DNA of 34,126 bases, taken from a virus. Its lineage: Duplodnaviria > Caudoviricetes. The notes beneath the pieces are model-generated. The model worked only from the letters and a program-made list of their open reading frames with translations, was not told the origin of the DNA and searched no databases. Positions 1-34,126 of the stretch are shown in pieces. The DNA is taken from positions 1 to 34,126 of the IMG/VR virus record IMGVR_UViG_3300033067_000816. One strand, 5' to 3'. The position numbers and the translations under genes are program-made. Numbering within the stretch: the stretch's first letter is position 1; each line of letters starts with the position of its first letter.

Positions 1-37
1 GGCCCCGGAGTACCTGAAAGATGACGATGAGGCATAA
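1..37 (+). CDS. 3' end of a truncated cassette ORF (...APEYLKDDDEA*)
   Basis: Open frame from position 2 ends at TAA 35-37 inside the GCATAAC box, as in other cassette ORFs. Confidence 0.55.
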   Translation, partial: APEYLKDDDEA

Positions 38-100
38 CGTAGAGCTAACCGGCTCCGGGCAGGTTCATCGCCCGGAGTCCGGTTGAGCGCCATGTTATGC
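32..100 (-). mobile_element. attC: attC recombination site (bottom strand = +)
   Basis: GCATAAC-GTAGA-GCTAACCGG-CTCCGGGC..GCCCGGAG-T-CCGGTT(G)AGC-GCCAT-GTTATGC: R and L boxes, hairpin, extrahelical T and G. Confidence 0.9.
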
Positions 101-116
101 GTGGAGGATGCAAAGA

Positions 117-431
117 ATGATGACGATGCCAAAGTGCCACGACTGCGGGAGGTTCTGCCGTCCGGTTGCGTGGAAAATGATCTATTCCGGAGCGCTTCCC
201 GAGCCGCAAGAGGAGATTTACAGATGCGCGCCATGTGTGGAGAAGCACGGATTGTTCGAGCCGCAGCACGGCATAAAGCCAGAGTATTCATGCGGAAAGT
301 TTCCCGCCGTCCCGCCAGCGCCGACTTTTGCAGACGGTATGACGAAAGAGGACGACAGGCGGTTTCTGGAACTGACCAACGACCTGACGCATAACGCAGA
401 AATAACCGGCCGCGCCAGCGGTCCGGGTTGA
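117..431 (+). CDS. Cassette F (38-394) ORF, putative Zn-binding protein; C-terminus runs into the next attC
   Basis: GGAGG at 103-107, ATG 117; CHDC...CAPC motifs. Confidence 0.65.
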   Translation: MMTMPKCHDCGRFCRPVAWKMIYSGALPEPQEEIYRCAPCVEKHGLFEPQHGIKPEYSCGKFPAVPPAPTFADGMTKEDDRRFLELTNDLTHNAEITGRASGPG

Positions 432-445
432 TTGACGGGTTAGCC
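389..445 (-). mobile_element. attC: attC recombination site
   Basis: GCATAAC-GCAGA-AATAACCGGCCGC..GCGG(T)CCGG(G)TT(G)ATT-GACGG-GTTAGCC. Confidence 0.88.
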
Positions 446-475: not shown

Positions 476-715
476 ATGAGCAACGACCCTTGGATTTACC
501 GCAGCGACAACATGAAGTGCAAGACGTGCATGTGGTTTGTGCCGAAGGTGGCAGCAACGCACCCGCTGCACGACAACAAACACAACGATACGAACACTTA
601 CGATCTTGGTCGTTGTCGTCGCCATGCGCCTTCGATGGGCGGCTATCCGGTAGTGATGGTCAATGATTGGTGCGGCGACCATCGGCTTGACGAGAACAAG
701 TTCCGTGCGGGCTAA
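476..715 (+). CDS. Cassette G (395-715) ORF, small Cys-rich phage-type protein
   Basis: AAGGA RBS, ATG 476; CKTC...GRCRRHAP...DWCGDH; TAA stop inside GGCTAAC box. Confidence 0.8.
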   Translation: MSNDPWIYRSDNMKCKTCMWFVPKVAATHPLHDNKHNDTNTYDLGRCRRHAPSMGGYPVVMVNDWCGDHRLDENKFRAG

Positions 716-732
716 CACTAATTATCCGGACC
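710..732 (-). mobile_element. Putative attI-like simple recombination site closing the array
   Basis: Minus strand reads GGTCCGGATAATTAGTG|TTAGCC: an R box plus an inverted half-site, with no hairpin. Confidence 0.5.
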
Positions 733-746
733 GTGCAAGGTAGGCC

Positions 747-1064
747 ATGAGCTACAGACTCACCAAGAAGGCCGCAGCGCAGCGCCAACGGCTGATCGCA
801 ATGAGGGCAGGACGCGAGCGCACCAGGCTTGCAGCGCCAGCGCCGGATTACCCGGTTCAGCTTCCGGAATTGCGCCGGCAGATCATCATTCGAGATTTCG
901 ACTTCGGCGAGAAGATCCACACGCTAGACCTGTACCGCACGAACCGCGTCGACTGCTACCGAGTAGTCGCGGATGGCATCGAGTGGAAACGCCGGATCGG
1001 ATGGTCGAACATCTTGGCTGGCCTGAGGAAATCAATGCCGCGCGTCGGCTCTTTTGGAGGGTAA
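747..1064 (+). CDS. Hypothetical phage protein
   Basis: 105-aa ORF with RBS-like AAGGTAGG, in operon orientation. Confidence 0.7.
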   Translation: MSYRLTKKAAAQRQRLIAMRAGRERTRLAAPAPDYPVQLPELRRQIIIRDFDFGEKIHTLDLYRTNRVDCYRVVADGIEWKRRIGWSNILAGLRKSMPRVGSFGG

Positions 1065-1386: not shown

Positions 1387-2295
1387 ATGAATTTCTACAA
1401 ACACCATCTTGGAGACTACGCGCAGGCAACGGCTCATCTGACGTTTGTAGAAGACGCCGCCTACAGTAGATTGATCCGGAAATACTACGCCGAGGAAAAG
1501 CCACTACCTCTCGAAATCAAGGCAATCCACAGACTTGTCGGCGCTCGAACGAAGGAGGAAAAACAGGCCGTCGAGGACGTTTTGGAAGAATTTTTTTTAA
1601 AAACTTCTGACGGATGGCGAAATAAGCGATGCGATGAAGAAATTGAACGCGCAAACGCACAAGCCGAGACAAATAGGCTTATAGCTCAAGCACGTGAAGC
1701 GCGAAGGAAAGCACGAACCGAGAACGAGGCAAGCACGAATCGTGATGAAAAAGAGAACGAATCGTCTAACGAATCGTCGGCTAGTCGTGAACCTAGCCAG
1801 ACTCCAGACTCCAGACTCCAGACTAAACCTACAGAATCAAAAGCACTGTTCGGCAACATCGAAACCCAGCCTCAAGCACCCGACCCCAAACCCGAACAAT
1901 CGCAAGCCCGCAAAAAGCTCTCCGAAGCCTGCATCGAAGTCCTAAACTTCCTCAACGAGAAAACCGGGCGAAATTATCAACCCGTGAAAGCAAACATCAA
2001 CCTAATCGCGTCAAGGATCAAGGAGGGCGCGACCGTGATCCAATGCAGACAGGTGATCGCCAAAAAATGCCGCGAGTGGAGAGACGATCCAAACCGGGAA
2101 ATCTACCTGCGACCGAAAACGCTTTTCAACGCGACGAACTTTGCGCAGTACCAGGGGGAGCTTTTGCAGAACATGACATCGGAAAATCAAGCCACAACCG
2201 CATGTATCTGCTGCGGCAAGCCTTGGACAAAACGAATCGGCGGAAGCCCGTATTGCCAAGATCATGATCAGCATTCGCAACGGGTGCCGGCATGA
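1387..2295 (+). CDS. Phage replication initiation protein (YdaU/DUF1376-like N-terminus, conserved phage C-terminal domain)
   Basis: MNFYKHHLGDY...AAYSRLI..YY..EKPLP...WRNKRCDEEI; C-terminal LNEKTGRNY...YLRPKTLFN. Confidence 0.85.
   Translation: MNFYKHHLGDYAQATAHLTFVEDAAYSRLIRKYYAEEKPLPLEIKAIHRLVGARTKEEKQAVEDVLEEFFLKTSDGWRNKRCDEEIERANAQAETNRLIAQAREARRKARTENEASTNRDEKENESSNESSASREPSQTPDSRLQTKPTESKALFGNIETQPQAPDPKPEQSQARKKLSEACIEVLNFLNEKTGRNYQPVKANINLIASRIKEGATVIQCRQVIAKKCREWRDDPNREIYLRPKTLFNATNFAQYQGELLQNMTSENQATTACICCGKPWTKRIGGSPYCQDHDQHSQRVPA
1735..1824 (+). repeat. Iteron-like repeats, probable replication origin inside initiator gene
   Basis: ACGAATCGT at 1735, 1757 and 1769; (CCAGACT)x4 at 1797-1824. 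Confidence 0.6.
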
Positions 2296-30155: not shown

Positions 30156-30365
30156 GTTTTCCCCTTTGCTCTTTGGTGAGCGCACCAAGCCATCCCTAGC
30201 CAAGTGCGCCTTCAGTCGATTGCTCTCCGGAGCCACGACACCCGCAAGCCTTTCGTCCTCGGGTGCTTGCTTCGCCGCCCGTTGCGCCTCTCAGAACTTC
30301 CCCACGATTGCGCATTTCCCCAGCCCTCGCCCGTTATCCTGACAAGCTGGCGGCCACCAGAAACG

Positions 30366-31264: not shown

Positions 31265-31458
31265 CACCACGACCCCGAGTTAATCGCGCGGGCTTCGGCC
31301 CGGTCGAACAGTGCCAATTCCTCGGCATCGTTCTCGGCCTGCGTTTTTTCCGCCAGGAGATCGCGCTCGTCGCGCTCGACGCGCTCGATGTTGTGGCACA
31401 CAAGGCTGTATCGATGCGGGAAATCGTAAGCTTTGCAACGGCAGGGTTTCGCTTTCAT
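31264..31458 (-). CDS. Small Cys/His protein
   Basis: CRCKAYDFPHR...C motif; coupled. Confidence 0.65.
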   Translation of the reverse strand: MKAKPCRCKAYDFPHRYSLVCHNIERVERDERDLLAEKTQAENDAEELALFDRAEARAINSGSW

Positions 31459-31694
31459 GATTCGAGCCTTTCCTGGTCGATGGCGTGCGCGATGTAGCGC
31501 TCATTTTCGTTGTGGCGCTTCTGGCATTCGACGCGAATCATGATCAGCGTGTCGTCGTCGATGATGCGCAGAACGTCCTCCGGATGCCCGTCGAGCCAGA
31601 GGCGAATGATCGTCGGCAGCTTGCCGCTGGTCGGCAGGTAGTCGGCGCTGAACTCATGGCCGCGCACATGCACGGTGGCAGTCTGGTGGCTCAT
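31455..31694 (-). CDS. Hypothetical protein (79 aa)
   Basis: MSHQTATVHV...; ATGA overlaps on both sides. Confidence 0.65.
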   Translation of the reverse strand: MSHQTATVHVRGHEFSADYLPTSGKLPTIIRLWLDGHPEDVLRIIDDDTLIMIRVECQKRHNENERYIAHAIDQERLES

Positions 31695-31831
31695 GTCAGG
31701 GTCAGCACGATAGCGGCGATGGCGGCGATTCCGGCCAGCACCGTAAAAACGTAAAGTCCATCCGATACTTTGTCCTGATATCGGAAATGGGCATCGCTGC
31801 ATCCGTTATCGTCGTCATTGCGGAACATCAT
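31691..31831 (-). CDS. Small membrane peptide (46 aa), first gene of leftward operon
   Basis: GAGGAG RBS; MMFRNDDDNG...YVFTVLAGIAAIAAIVLTLT*. Confidence 0.6.
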   Translation of the reverse strand: MMFRNDDDNGCSDAHFRYQDKVSDGLYVFTVLAGIAAIAAIVLTLT

Positions 31832-31863
31832 TTGCGGCTCCTCTTTCGTGATTTGGAGATTGC

Positions 31864-31891
31864 ATTATCGGCTGCCGAATAATTTTGTCAA
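31864..31891 (-). promoter_or_regulatory. Leftward early promoter
   Basis: TTGACA-16 bp-GATAAT on minus strand. Confidence 0.65.
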
Positions 31892-31898
31892 GGGGGGC

Positions 31899-31926
31899 TT
31901 GCTTTTTTTTTACGAGTGACTAGAAT
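31899..31926 (+). promoter_or_regulatory. Rightward early promoter facing HTH gene and cassette array
   Basis: TTGCTT-16 bp-TAGAAT, with ATG 8 bp downstream (leaderless). Confidence 0.6.
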
Positions 31927-31934
31927 CCAATCGC

Positions 31935-32093
31935 ATGAAGATCAAAACAGCGCATCAGATTTACATGAAAAACGTTGCAGCCAGGCGCAGGCGCGTCGCA
32001 AAGATGCGTCAGTTTGGTATGACGTGGAAAGCAATCGCTGCCGCGCTAGGGGTCAGCAGGCAGAGGGCGCAGCAGATCGGGAGCGAGATTTGA
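31935..32093 (+). CDS. Cro-like HTH regulator (52 aa; missing from ORF track)
   Basis: MKIKTAHQ...MRQFGMTWKAIAAALGVSRQRAQQI. Confidence 0.85.
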   Translation: MKIKTAHQIYMKNVAARRRRVAKMRQFGMTWKAIAAALGVSRQRAQQIGSEI

Positions 32094-32094
32094 C

Positions 32095-32162
32095 GCCCAA
32101 CGTCGGAATTCAGCGGGCTTCGCCCGCTTCTGGCGAAGCTCCGCTGGAATGTAGTGTTATGC
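32095..32162 (-). mobile_element. attC: attC recombination site
   Basis: GCCCAAC-GTCGGA-ATTCAGCGG-GCTTCGCC..GGCGAAGC-T-CCGCTG(G)AAT-GTAGT-GTTATGC. Confidence 0.9.
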
Positions 32163-32210
32163 ACCAGTTGTTAAGTTTTCCTTAACCACTGAGCAACGAA
32201 AGGAAACCGA

Positions 32211-32450
32211 ATGAACTTTACACAAGTAGATGACGTGGCGTTCGCTGGATATGACTTCGCTGCGGGCCATGGTCGCGTTCCAAAGCTGCACGACCAGTTT
32301 GACGTCGACGCATTCAATGCAGGGATTGCCAATTTCAACGCGACCCACGGGACCAATGTTCCGCCGCTCTTCGAGCGCACGCGAACGATCTGCGATGGAA
32401 CAAATGCCGGGCAGTCGTCGGATAAGTCGCTGGCGATTGTTGGTGCATAA
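32211..32450 (+). CDS. Cassette A (32101-32450) ORF, hypothetical
   Basis: AAGGA RBS; TAA stop in GCATAAC box. Confidence 0.75.
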   Translation: MNFTQVDDVAFAGYDFAAGHGRVPKLHDQFDVDAFNAGIANFNATHGTNVPPLFERTRTICDGTNAGQSSDKSLAIVGA

Positions 32451-32512
32451 CGTTTGAATTCAGCGGCTACGCGCGCTTCTTGCGCGGAGTCCGCTGGAAT
32501 GATTAGTTCGGC
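32445..32512 (-). mobile_element. attC: attC recombination site
   Basis: GCATAAC-GTTTGA-ATTCAGCGG..T-CCGCTG(G)AAT-GATTA-GTTCGGC. Confidence 0.9.
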
Positions 32513-32547
32513 GTCTTGCGAGCGCCGACTTTTGAGAGGATGGAAAC

Positions 32548-32736
32548 GTGGACATTTTGGAACATGCGTTGGCGCAGCGAATTGGTGGGGCCGATGGCGA
32601 ACTGGTTGAGGCGTTGTGCGAAGAGGTTAAGCGACTACGCGAGATTGAGGCGGCGGCTCGGAACCTTTGCAACCAGAAGGGGCGGCATAACACCGAAATT
32701 GCGATGCTGCGATTGATGAGCGTATGCGGATTTTGA
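32548..32736 (+). CDS. Cassette B (32451-32743) ORF, hypothetical
   Basis: GAGG RBS, GTG start, TGA stop 1 bp before GCCTAAC. Confidence 0.7.
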   Translation: MDILEHALAQRIGGADGELVEALCEEVKRLREIEAAARNLCNQKGRHNTEIAMLRLMSVCGF

Positions 32737-32737
32737 C

Positions 32738-32807
32738 GCCTAACGCAAAAGTTGAGGCCGACGGCGCGGCTTCTTGCGCCGGTCGCGCCTCGAACGACGG
32801 GTTGGGC
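32738..32807 (-). mobile_element. attC: attC recombination site
   Basis: GCCTAAC-GCAAAA-GTTGAGG..CCTC(G)AAC-GACGG-GTTGGGC. Confidence 0.88.
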
Positions 32808-32830
32808 GGCGAGTGACTACGGAGAGCGAT

Positions 32831-33220
32831 ATGGACTACCTGATTGCCCATATAGGGCACACACAGAAACACAACGAACACGTTTGCTGGTGGAAGCCAG
32901 AGAGCAGGGGCTACACCATCTGCATCGACAAGGCGGGCCGCTACAGCGAGGAAGAGGCGCGCAGTATCTGCACGAACGGCTTGTGTATCGCTGTTTTGCC
33001 GGAGATGGCCGCAGAGATTGCGCGCAGCACGCCCTACTACCGGAGGACAGACGGAAGCCTTGCCAAGCTTTACGACGGCGACCAGCACCGGCCAGTGCCG
33101 AACACTCTGCAAGCGTGGAAACACCTGCTGGCCGCTCGACTTGGTGGATGCGCGCACCCAGACAAGCCGACGCCGATTGGCGCGAAAGCACGGGCGATCT
33201 ACCTGCCGCCCAACGGCTGA
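32831..33220 (+). CDS. Cassette C (32744-33213) ORF, phage-type hypothetical
   Basis: GGAG RBS; WWKPESRGYT..IDKAGRYSEEEA; stop lies in next attC. Confidence 0.8.
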   Translation: MDYLIAHIGHTQKHNEHVCWWKPESRGYTICIDKAGRYSEEEARSICTNGLCIAVLPEMAAEIARSTPYYRRTDGSLAKLYDGDQHRPVPNTLQAWKHLLAARLGGCAHPDKPTPIGAKARAIYLPPNG

Positions 33221-33274
33221 AATAACCGGCGTGCCGGCATTATCGGCACGTCCGGGTTGATTGATTAGTTATGT
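33208..33274 (-). mobile_element. attC: attC recombination site
   Basis: GCCCAAC-GGCTGA-AATAACCGG-CGTGCCG..CGGCACG-T-CCGGGTT(G)ATT-GATTA-GTTATGT. Confidence 0.9.
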
Positions 33275-33299
33275 TTCTTTGCGTATATACCAAAACAAC

Positions 33300-33346
33300 T
33301 TGACAAAGTTTGATTGTGTAGATACAATATGGTTGCAGTTACACAA
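33300..33346 (+). promoter_or_regulatory. Strong internal promoter and operator-like inverted repeats in cassette D
   Basis: TTGACA-17 bp-TACAAT; ATTGT-N6-ACAAT and TTGTGTA...TACACAA. Confidence 0.75.
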
Positions 33347-33361
33347 CCAAGGAGAAACAAC

Positions 33362-33598
33362 ATGAACATCATTGAGGCGTATGCCAAGACCATGAAAATG
33401 GTAGCCGATGGGGAATCCCCGGAAAGCGCAGTAAGAATGGTGGTTGATAATTTTGACATCGATTACGACCACGATGCAGCGGCAATGATGCTGCATTGGC
33501 ATTGCCATCGGGCTGGCGGGTTTTGCGGAGTTGGAGGCTATCCTCTAAACGCCAAACGACCGAACAACAGCCTGATGAAGTGGGCCGGTGCATTATGA
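33362..33598 (+). CDS. Cassette D (33214-33774) ORF1, hypothetical
   Basis: AAGGAG RBS, ATG 33362, ATGA overlap with ORF2. Confidence 0.75.
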   Translation: MNIIEAYAKTMKMVADGESPESAVRMVVDNFDIDYDHDAAAMMLHWHCHRAGGFCGVGGYPLNAKRPNNSLMKWAGAL

Positions 33599-33774
33599 GC
33601 AACGAGCGTCGCGGAGGCGCAGGACGCGGCCAGGGGCGCAAGCCCTTGGCGAAGACGGGCGAACTGATGAAGTCGCGCCCGGTGCGAATGACAGACGAGG
33701 AATGGGCGAAGTGCAAGCGCCTTGGTGGGGCAGCATGGGTGCGGGCAAAAATCAAGGCTGCCCGTGAAACATAA
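33595..33774 (+). CDS. Cassette D ORF2, ribbon-helix-helix-type DNA-binding protein
   Basis: RGGAGRGQGRKP...SRPVRMTDEEWAK...GGAAWVRAKI; TAA in ACATAAC. Confidence 0.8.
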   Translation: MSNERRGGAGRGQGRKPLAKTGELMKSRPVRMTDEEWAKCKRLGGAAWVRAKIKAARET

Positions 33775-33852
33775 CGTGCTAGCTGACCGGCGCGAGCCGA
33801 TAGGCGAAGCGTCCAATGAGCGAAGCGAATGTGGTCGAGCGGAGGGTTAGAA
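33769..33852 (-). mobile_element. attC: attC recombination site (longer variable region)
   Basis: ACATAAC-GTGCTA-GCTGACC..GGTC(G)AGC-GGAGG-GTTAGAA. Confidence 0.85.
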
Positions 33853-33856
33853 GGCT

Positions 33857-34066
33857 ATGCAAACGAAGGCGACTGGTTTTGTGCTTATAACCCCGACTGG
33901 CGCGATTTGGGCCGAGACATTCAGGCCCACGCGGGATGCCGCAAAGGGATGGCTGGCAATGCAGAAAATGAGCGACGGGCGATACCACGATTGGAAGCAT
34001 TACTACCGGGCAGGATGGCGCTGCAAGCCGGCGACGGTTCAATTGGTGGAGCCTTCTAACGTTTGA
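33857..34066 (+). CDS. Cassette E (33775-34059) ORF, hypothetical
   Basis: 69 aa, fills the cassette; stop lies in next attC. Confidence 0.75.
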   Translation: MQTKATGFVLITPTGAIWAETFRPTRDAAKGWLAMQKMSDGRYHDWKHYYRAGWRCKPATVQLVEPSNV

Positions 34067-34121
34067 ATTCAGCGGCTACGCGCGCTTCTTGCGCGGAGTC
34101 CGCTGGAATGATTAGTTCGGC
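34054..34121 (-). mobile_element. attC: attC site, second copy of the start of cassette B
   Basis: 34057-34126 is identical to 32448-32517 (70 bp). Confidence 0.88.
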
Positions 34122-34126
34122 GTCTT

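Follow-up and report, generated by a model that had tools for sequence, protein, structure and literature searches.

The window analysed here is the whole of the viral record IMGVR_UViG_3300033067_000816 (Duplodnaviria; Caudoviricetes), a linear stretch of 34,126 nt with a completeness of 87% as estimated by CheckV. Scanning of its 51 open reading frames (ORFs) against PHROG reveals a podovirus-type virion set (head-tail adaptor, major head protein, internal virion proteins and terminase), a replication initiator and a Holliday junction resolvase on the plus strand; the genes for exonuclease VIII-like and Sak4-like proteins are located on the minus strand. The subject of this study is an array of eight attC sites, the sites at which integron cassettes recombine, that lies in the rightward early operon of this phage between a Cro-like helix-turn-helix (HTH) gene and the replication initiator gene. 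Plus-strand genes with ribosome sites are located between the attC sites, and the array ends at an attI-like entry site, which is followed by a conserved near-palindrome and the gene of an orphan protein, ORF747 (Table 1). The loci or contigs of relatives that were compared with the window are referred to by L-numbers.

Table 1. Features of the attC array and of its surroundings, in the order in which the early operon is read across the two ends of the window
Feature	Position	Strand	Remarks
HTH (Cro-like) gene, first in rightward early operon	31935..32093	+	PHROG HTH E 6e-7; Pfam HTH_23 over cut-off; array starts 2 nt past stop
attC 1 (last in canonical direction)	32095..32162	-	55.2 bits; R'' GCATAAC, L'' with extra C, extra A, R' GTTGGGC
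Cassette 1, 350 bp	32101..32450		gene 32211-32450 (+), 79 aa; stop = TAA of far core; no family match
attC 2	32445..32512	-	59 bits
Cassette 2, 293 bp	32451..32743		gene most likely 32548-32736 (+), 62 aa; chosen by ribosome-site spacing
attC 3	32738..32807	-	44.4 bits
Cassette 3, 470 bp	32744..33213		gene 32831-33220 (+), 129 aa; phiPLPE gp75 homolog, PHROG 23101
attC 4	33208..33274	-	42.2 bits
Cassette 4, 561 bp	33214..33774		two genes (+), 33362-33598 and 33595-33774; own sigma70-type promoter 33300-33328
attC 5	33769..33852	-	30.4 bits
Cassette 5, 285 bp	33775..34059		gene 33857-34066 (+), 69 aa; extends into next hairpin
attC 6	34054..34121	-	57.3 bits; next 5 nt belong to a cassette truncated at contig end
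Cassette 3' end, cut by contig start	1..37	+	core word mismatches R'' of attC 6 at 2 of 4 variable letters
attC 7	32..100	-	58 bits
Cassette 7, 357 bp	38..394		gene 117-431 (+), reads through attC 8; 95% aa identity in L367
attC 8 (first in canonical direction)	389..445	-	45.3 bits
Cassette 8, 321 bp, adjoins entry site	395..715		gene 476-715 (+), 79 aa; stop = core TAA
attI-like entry site	710..728 (core 710-716)	-	bare core, no hairpin; crossover 715/716; core word = R'' of attC 8
Conserved near-palindrome	730..741	.	ACC(G/T)TGCAAGGT; between entry site and ORF747; one copy in window
ORF747	747..1064	+	105-aa conserved orphan protein; takes the place that intI has in host integrons; 383 homologs
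Replication initiator (primosomal protein)	1387..2295	+	downstream of array; PHROG 3992, 9327, 4118

Sites and cassettes of the array

The attC sites were identified by two methods. A rule-based scorer with a threshold score of at least 23 detects exactly eight sites in the 34 kb, compared with a mean of 0.15 and a maximum of 1 in 20 dinucleotide shuffles of the same 34 kb. A covariance model recovers the same eight sites at 30.4-59 bits, and its next-best match in the window is at 12.3 bits. This model was trained on 44 attC sites from intI-bearing bacterial loci; matches to the motif used as a search seed (see below), sites longer than 80 nt and two L165 sites of a duplicated inverted cassette were left out, so that the model rests on host sites without the search motif and circularity is avoided. 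A generic hairpin-energy scan was dropped, because it neither separates the sites from the GC-rich background nor gives their polarity. Each of the eight sites contains R'' and R' boxes with AAC and GTT, L'' and L' boxes, extrahelical bases on one arm and a variable terminal hairpin. The L-box stem is 94% paired over 99 phage sites, with both-side changes in 11 of its 12 pairs in an alignment that is fitted to the model. Thus, both methods, including the covariance model that had been proposed as a check, return the eight attC-like hairpins with R and L boxes and bulged bases that a reading made from the letters alone, without database searches (the sequence-only reading), had described, and its placement of the array between the Cro-like gene and the replication genes holds.

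All eight sites are canonical on the minus strand, and their plus-strand versions score at most 9.5 bits on the model, which rules out the plus-strand orientation implied by the sequence-only reading. When the polarity was controlled with 19 intI-bearing loci (some of them overlapping), 83 of 83 sites point opposite to intI, which is described as the usual arrangement (10.1101/030866). Because the attC sites are located on the minus strand and the genes on the plus strand, each gene is inverted in its own cassette and has its own attC site at its 5' end. The usual orientation, in which a gene points toward its own attC site and is readable from the integron promoter Pc, is not found in the window.

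In an excised cassette circle, R'' pairs with the first letters of the cassette itself, letters that are part of the neighbouring site when the cassette lies in an array. When each R'' is compared with the far-end core of its unit, one mismatch is found over the seven units of the window, and only 2 of 5040 permutations are as good. Each unit begins at TTRRRY, its last letter is the G of the following R', and in the circle its R'' complements the start of the same unit. The unit lengths (Table 1) agree with the 285-561 bp given earlier for the ORF units. The genes of three of the seven units stop at the TAA of the far core, that of one stops just before it, and those of three run into the next hairpin.

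On the transcribed strand, the hairpins immediately precede ribosome sites, and their folding energies are -9 to -24 kcal/mol, as might be expected if they were RNA signals (terminators, processing or translation elements) with only an incidental likeness to attC. This explanation is hardly credible, because the hairpins contain canonical R and L boxes with extra bases and give 30-59 bits on a model of host attC sites, because whole units match at their ends, because the same sites occur beside intI, and because an Rfam scan finds no family at the attC sites. It is largely refuted by the exact boundaries of a cassette common to L053, L068 and L165, which is described below. An added RNA role of the hairpins alongside the attC function is conceivable.

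Both ends of the window fall within the array. Its final 70 nt (34057-34126) are an exact repeat of 32448-32517, so that the assembly most likely broke at this repeated site, and this repeat together with the completeness of 87% places the gap inside the array. Two or more cassettes are probably contained in the gap, because the core at position 32 differs from R'' of attC 6.

PHROG, Pfam and NCBIfam scans assign no function to the cargo of the window. The promoter of cassette 4 (TTGACA-17-TACAAT), found in a scan of 31600-34126, has 11 of the 12 consensus letters. The product of the second gene of this cassette resembles a small regulator of the ribbon-helix-helix type but has no family match; relatives of this gene with 91-95% amino acid identity occur in L079 and L348 and have their ends at the core word found here. 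In three sequencing runs, a contig joins 33326 to 33616 and so skips the first gene. The attC site and leader of cassette 2 also head unrelated genes in six other cassettes. This attC end with its leader of about 34 nt containing a ribosome site (32506-32540 in the window; also L004, L022, L023, L064 and L301) is found before seven unrelated genes, and loose contig ends in three runs place further genes behind it. It may be a template for cassette making.

Genes similar to the cargo also occur outside arrays. An upstream attC site is missing in 76 of the 77 loci with enough flank that contain homologs of the cassette 8 gene, and the homologs in L368 (94% amino acid identity) and L369 (91%) are free of attC. 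Likewise, eight of the nine loci with homologs of the cassette 3 gene, including that of phiPLPE gp75, have no upstream attC site. Among the cargo of relatives, 27 of 102 proteins (of 105 extracted) have a PHROG match, and eight of these are DNA methyltransferases.

A search seeded with a 20-letter attC motif from the sites of the window gave 91 viral and 126 genome stretches (about 970 estimated); the motif is also present in many betaproteobacterial integrons. Clean units (150-1500 bp, at most one end mismatch, duplicates removed) were used to compare gene direction, which was called heuristically from ribosome-site score and A-T skew; calls by the longest ORF had been dropped as too ambiguous on short genes. 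The 155 viral units, from 45 loci, comprise 122 inverted, 20 sense and 13 unclear cassettes, with A-T skew in agreement in 142. The 145 bacterial units, from 47 loci, comprise 116 sense, 19 inverted and 10 unclear cassettes. A perfect end-match is found in 99 of 141 viral cases, compared with 17 of 141 for the site's own ends, and in 101 of 136 bacterial cases, compared with 17 of 136; it reaches approximately position 12 in both groups. Two arrays per viral contig are present in L032, L066 and L094, and those of L032 and L094 lie on opposite strands, which suggests use in both early operons.

Entry site and ORF747

The array has a bare core at one end and a full attC site at the other, which fixes the crossover at the canonical R' box. 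In host attI sites beside intI, an A/T-rich spacer separates AAC from a word similar to GTAGAC. On a profile built from 11 such sites, 32 of 98 entry sites of ORF747 loci score at least 5, compared with a background of 0.4%, and the core word of the entry site matches R'' of the last attC site in 40 of 42 loci. The downstream part of the entry site of the window matches the family, and its position at the head of the array and its core word fit an attI site; the window copy is weak on the host profile and may therefore be degenerate. An intI gene next to attI, as in a complete integron, is not found, ORF747 being located there instead.

The near-palindrome precedes ORF747 in 85 of 103 loci and is present in 3 of 26 intI loci, where presence and not position was counted. 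The homologs of ORF747 form 251 clusters at 50% identity. Attendant attC sites are located upstream in the polarity of the window in 67 of 71 ORF747 loci, and the gene downstream of ORF747 varies. The protein is predicted to consist of a helix, a four-strand sheet and a helix (pLDDT 82), and its conserved residues include several basic and aromatic ones. Scans of Pfam, NCBIfam and PHROG give no match for ORF747, under conditions in which IntI controls give 443-488 bits. Foldseek searches of PDB and viral libraries give no match at E<=0.001, and the best Z in VIA is 4.1; this null result indicates neither a known nor a new fold. The best match in the atlas (0.81) is unnamed. Longer homologs, one with an HNH domain, look like chance fusions.

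Bacterial arrays of sense cassettes are headed by the ORF747 module as well, both in contigs from soil and in 9 of the 251 genomes of one family; of seven tested genomes with attI-ORF747, six have intI elsewhere. ORF747 was not found in five named-locus genomes. In L314, L317, L322, L323 and L547, chromosomal sense arrays begin with attI, followed by one or two palindromes and, in place of intI, a homolog of ORF747. L546:7708-10558 (G701) is a prophage- or satellite-like element that contains attI, ORF747 and inverted cassettes, one of which is duplicated; its genome has three intI genes.

Since ORF747 occupies the intI slot in phages and bacterial chromosomes and has conserved basic and aromatic residues, it might be a small new cassette recombinase that replaces IntI. 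This is highly improbable, because a protein of 105 residues with a helix-sheet-helix prediction resembles no recombinase family and lacks the Phage_integrase domain and the R-H-R-Y set of tyrosine recombinases, most array-bearing viral loci have no ORF747 in the fetched flank, genomes with ORF747 have intI elsewhere, and the cassettes have IntI-type ends. ORF747 is more probably an accessory DNA-binding factor of a putative satellite attI.

Cassette exchange and the source of the integrase

The arrays of the phage contigs L021 and L022 contain 5 and 11 sites, and their flanks are 99.7% identical over 1.5 and 2 kb. These arrays have only attC-length matches in common and no cassette. Conversely, single cassettes recur with exact boundaries in different arrays. 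Cassette 8 of the window is near-identical in phage L367, with identity ending at the core word, and cassette 3 is found as a cassette with 87% amino acid identity and the same end words in L360. In other runs, a contig of 2125 nt matches 711-1500 with one difference and diverges beyond the core, and a further contig matches 673-716, the end of cassette 8, and is unlike the window after 716. One inverted cassette is approximately 99% identical, from G/TTATGC (the slash marking the boundary) to the G of the next GTT, in phages L053 and L068 and in L165, a 65-kb contig of an Ottowia metagenome-assembled genome (MAG) that carries intI (TIGR02249, 443 bits) among housekeeping genes; the shared unit is cassette 2 of its integron. 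Cassettes 1 and 3 of L165 are identical copies of another inverted cassette. The A-B-A order of inverted phage-type cassettes at the head of this host integron (L165:5218-6461) is as expected from replicative excision and re-entry at attI. Inverted phage-like cassettes are also present in the intI arrays L139 and L173 and in the complete-genome array L178, where such a cassette adjoins one whose protein (L178:3679-4518) we take, from its motif, to resemble a class D beta-lactamase. As far as sequence comparison goes, cassette boundaries at G/TT, exchange of content and sharing of inverted cassettes with a chromosomal integron are demonstrated.

At least half of the words of 31800-34126 are contained in 13 public runs, mostly freshwater, wastewater and sludge metagenomes. 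Contigs from runs have cassette-skipping joints (32445 to 33770, 32448 to 33212 and 33271 to 34056), whose sides of 20-30 nt are possibly from other phages, this comparison being made with contigs only. Cassettes 3 and 8 are each uncovered in three runs, which proves nothing on their absence. When the array is compared by blastn with 50,697 phage records and 72,556 plasmid records, only short matches are obtained, namely one cargo gene in phiPLPE and a Chromobacterium plasmid and attC-length matches in two plasmids.

The array could be a relic that was built by an ancestral intI of the phage and in which, with no current IntI, cassettes move only by homologous recombination between similar attC bodies. 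Proteins suited to this (Sak4-like and exonuclease VIII-like) are encoded in the window, phage-borne intI is present in L360, L074 and the record of L092, the attC-leader is identical over the 70-nt repeat and attC-leaders are common to unrelated genes, and the entry site of the window is diverged. A relic is unlikely, however, because shared cassettes end exactly at G/TT beside unlike attC bodies, and because content differs between near-identical phages at an entry site that is not repeated. The entry site and its circle match would also hardly be kept in 40 of 42 loci, nor would a 99% identical cassette be present in a host integron.

The window gives no TIGR02249 match, and the best E value in tblastn with an IntI and a phage integrase against the assembled 34 kb is 0.31. 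The sequence-only reading had noted that no tyrosine recombinase is present in the window, and these scans and that against PHROG bear it out. Likewise, intI is found in none of the 38 viral records with ORF747, including six that are at least 90% complete. It is found in 2 of 50 other attC-bearing viral records (1 of 17 at least 90% complete, several with terminal repeats), with eight further loci lying outside this search. An integrase from L002 was dropped as an IntI seed, because its plasmid search found only itself. The record of L022 is 100% complete and has no intI.

L360 (1609-6896) and L074 (256-3245) are temperate phages whose early operon contains a complete integron, in the order inverted cassettes, attI, intI (on the strand of the cassette genes), excisionase-like gene and phage integrase. 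A second attI copy is located ahead of the phage integrase in L360. The intI gene of L360 is located between two cassette runs, and the contig of the window breaks inside its array with approximately 13% of the genome missing (CheckV), so that an intI of its own might lie in the gap. This is very unlikely in view of the absence of intI from the 38 ORF747 records, from the six nearly complete ones and from the closed arrays L021 and L022, and because the entry site of the window is followed by ORF747 and not by intI.

Because the assembled window has no intI, the enzyme must otherwise come in trans, from the host or from a prophage of the L360 type. From the sequences, we infer that IntI of the host acts on the array in trans; a co-resident prophage could also be its source. 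The host group is most likely betaproteobacterial, as suggested by the attC motif in betaproteobacterial integrons and by an Rfam Betaproteobacteria-1 RNA in the leftward operon (30240-30352, minus strand, 70.9 bits). The divergent control region (31455-31935) has a strong leftward promoter at 31864-31891. It has no match to a CI-like repressor or an integrase, though the replication and recombination modules look temperate.

These results support the earlier proposal of a modular accessory-gene locus: its units are true IntI-type cassettes, its content varies between relatives, and it has no integrase of its own in the assembled window. Every observation here that could have contradicted it goes the other way: the attC model gives matches, gene content varies and complete relatives have no intI. 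The inversion of the genes, the entry site resembling attI and the orphan gene ORF747 linked with it were not noticed in the sequence-only reading.

Proposed mechanism and comparison with known systems

We consider it likely that the phage carries an integron platform without an integrase, consisting of an attI-like site, at least eight attC sites and cassettes with reversed genes, on which IntI, most likely that of a betaproteobacterial host, acts in trans. IntI would probably insert, excise and reorder the cassettes by recombining the bottom strand, which is the plus strand here, at the R' box, and newcomers would enter at 715/716, upstream of ORF747 and the replication genes. Because the cassette genes run against attC polarity, the early rightward promoter of the phage would read them. 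At the 5' end of its gene, each cassette would bring both an attC site and a ribosome site; order and expression would therefore depend on the phage promoter and not on Pc, which is unnecessary for cargo of this polarity. In a host integron, the inverted cassettes would be antisense to Pc and silent, so that host arrays might be a reservoir. The cargo may be recruited from ordinary phage early genes. ORF747 and the palindrome would be an accessory of the entry site, ORF747 most likely binding DNA and helping or controlling recombination by IntI supplied in trans.

This arrangement probably arose through the capture of attI-intI by a temperate phage in the direction of its own transcription, a state still seen in L360 and L074, and intI would have been lost later. 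Such a capture makes the canonical direction of the array oppose transcription, which suggests an origin of the inversion. Short repeats are located near 1797-1825 within the initiator gene. If the replication origin lies there, the attC sites would have their bottom strand as the leading-strand template, which is described as the low-excision orientation of sedentary integrons (PMC5371416).

Several points weigh against this interpretation. Recombination and expression of the cassettes are predicted from sequence. Three viral records (L360, L074 and that of L092) have their own intI with the same layout, so that the enzyme need not be that of the host, and in a genome that is 87% complete the gap could hide an intI, as in L360. 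The host contig L165 belongs to a MAG. The viral and bacterial survey was seeded by the motif of the window and is not a random sample, and its direction call is wrong for one of six window units. Only 2 of 80 portal-gene relatives (48-63% amino acid identity) have arrays in the fetched stretch. On the profile of host attI sites, the entry site of the window reaches only -0.2 (rank 46 of 799 AAC words). ORF747 is present within the fetched flank in just 5 of 91 attC-motif viral loci and is therefore not required for arrays. Of 401 genomes from one family none contains ORF747, and of 401 from the order two do.

A more specific proposal, which is tentative, is that the array is a dedicated satellite integron of a widespread betaproteobacterial phage group. 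Its attI and palindrome-binding ORF747 would recruit or tune host IntI, and a phage-specific pool of inverted cassettes, derived from ordinary phage genes, would be parked in host integrons, silent and antisense to Pc. If this were the case, the machinery with which the host handles anti-phage cassettes would be the gene-shuffling engine of the phage, and the free and cassette forms of one phage gene would reveal cassette birth.

Integrons are viewed as bacterial devices and, lately, as stores of anti-phage genes. The present results suggest that phages apply integron chemistry to accessory genes of their own, that the logic of expression is reversed and that cassettes are exchanged with host chromosomes. 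They offer a concrete mechanism for the mosaicism of phage early regions. Cassette origin becomes testable, because the same gene occurs free in a phage and as a cassette (94% amino acid identity) and unrelated genes are preceded by one attC-leader. A candidate for an accessory factor in integron recombination is ORF747, which belongs to no known family.

Phage CALINs (clusters of attC sites lacking an integron integrase; at least two attC sites and no neighbouring intI) are known. Qi et al. (2023; PMC9892861) report 17 of them in 10,705 phages, which they call infrequent, and recombination by IntI1 at five of six tested phage attC sites. The array of the window resembles these CALINs in having several attC sites without intI, and in small genes and, among its relatives, DNA methyltransferases as cargo. 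In MW202573, one of these CALINs, the attC sites are opposite to the annotated genes as in the window, on which the available text of PMC9892861 is silent. In contrast, TJE1, the main example of that paper, is canonical, with genes and attC sites in the same direction. The available text mentions no gene inversion, attI site of CALINs, linked accessory gene, or cassette variation and sharing between phage and host, all of which are described here, with the entry site as an attI-like one. A literature search, with subscription journals mostly outside its scope, found no paper on inverted phage cassettes, an intI-less phage attI or an accessory gene at attI, so that the inversion, the attI and ORF747 were not found in print.

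Insertion at attG sites (bioRxiv 10.1101/2022.09.11.507474) indicates that IntI acts far from intI, and is a possible route for array seeding and for cutting new cassettes at GWT words. The attG sites are described as scattered three-letter targets, whereas the entry element here is fixed and conserved in approximately 100 loci. Recombination of the top strand is reported to flip a cassette, an event described as never observed in nature (Nivina et al. 2016; PMC5027507). Such a wrong-orientation insertion also yields genes facing Pc, but by flipping the whole cassette with its attC site, whereas in the window the attC sites have their normal polarity towards attI, and the inversion affects only the gene within its cassette. 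The sedentary chromosomal integrons of Betaproteobacteria have the same attC family and anatomy, the attI-type core (in relatives of the window), the end-matching and at least one shared cassette in common with the phage arrays. The window differs from them in that intI is absent, a small orphan gene and a palindrome take the intI slot, and the genes are inverted and would be read from a phage promoter past the far end of the array. With eight attC sites and no intI beside them in the assembled 34 kb, outside which the gap lies, the array is by definition a phage CALIN, and its sequence resembles that of an integron with an attI, without intI and with reversed cargo.

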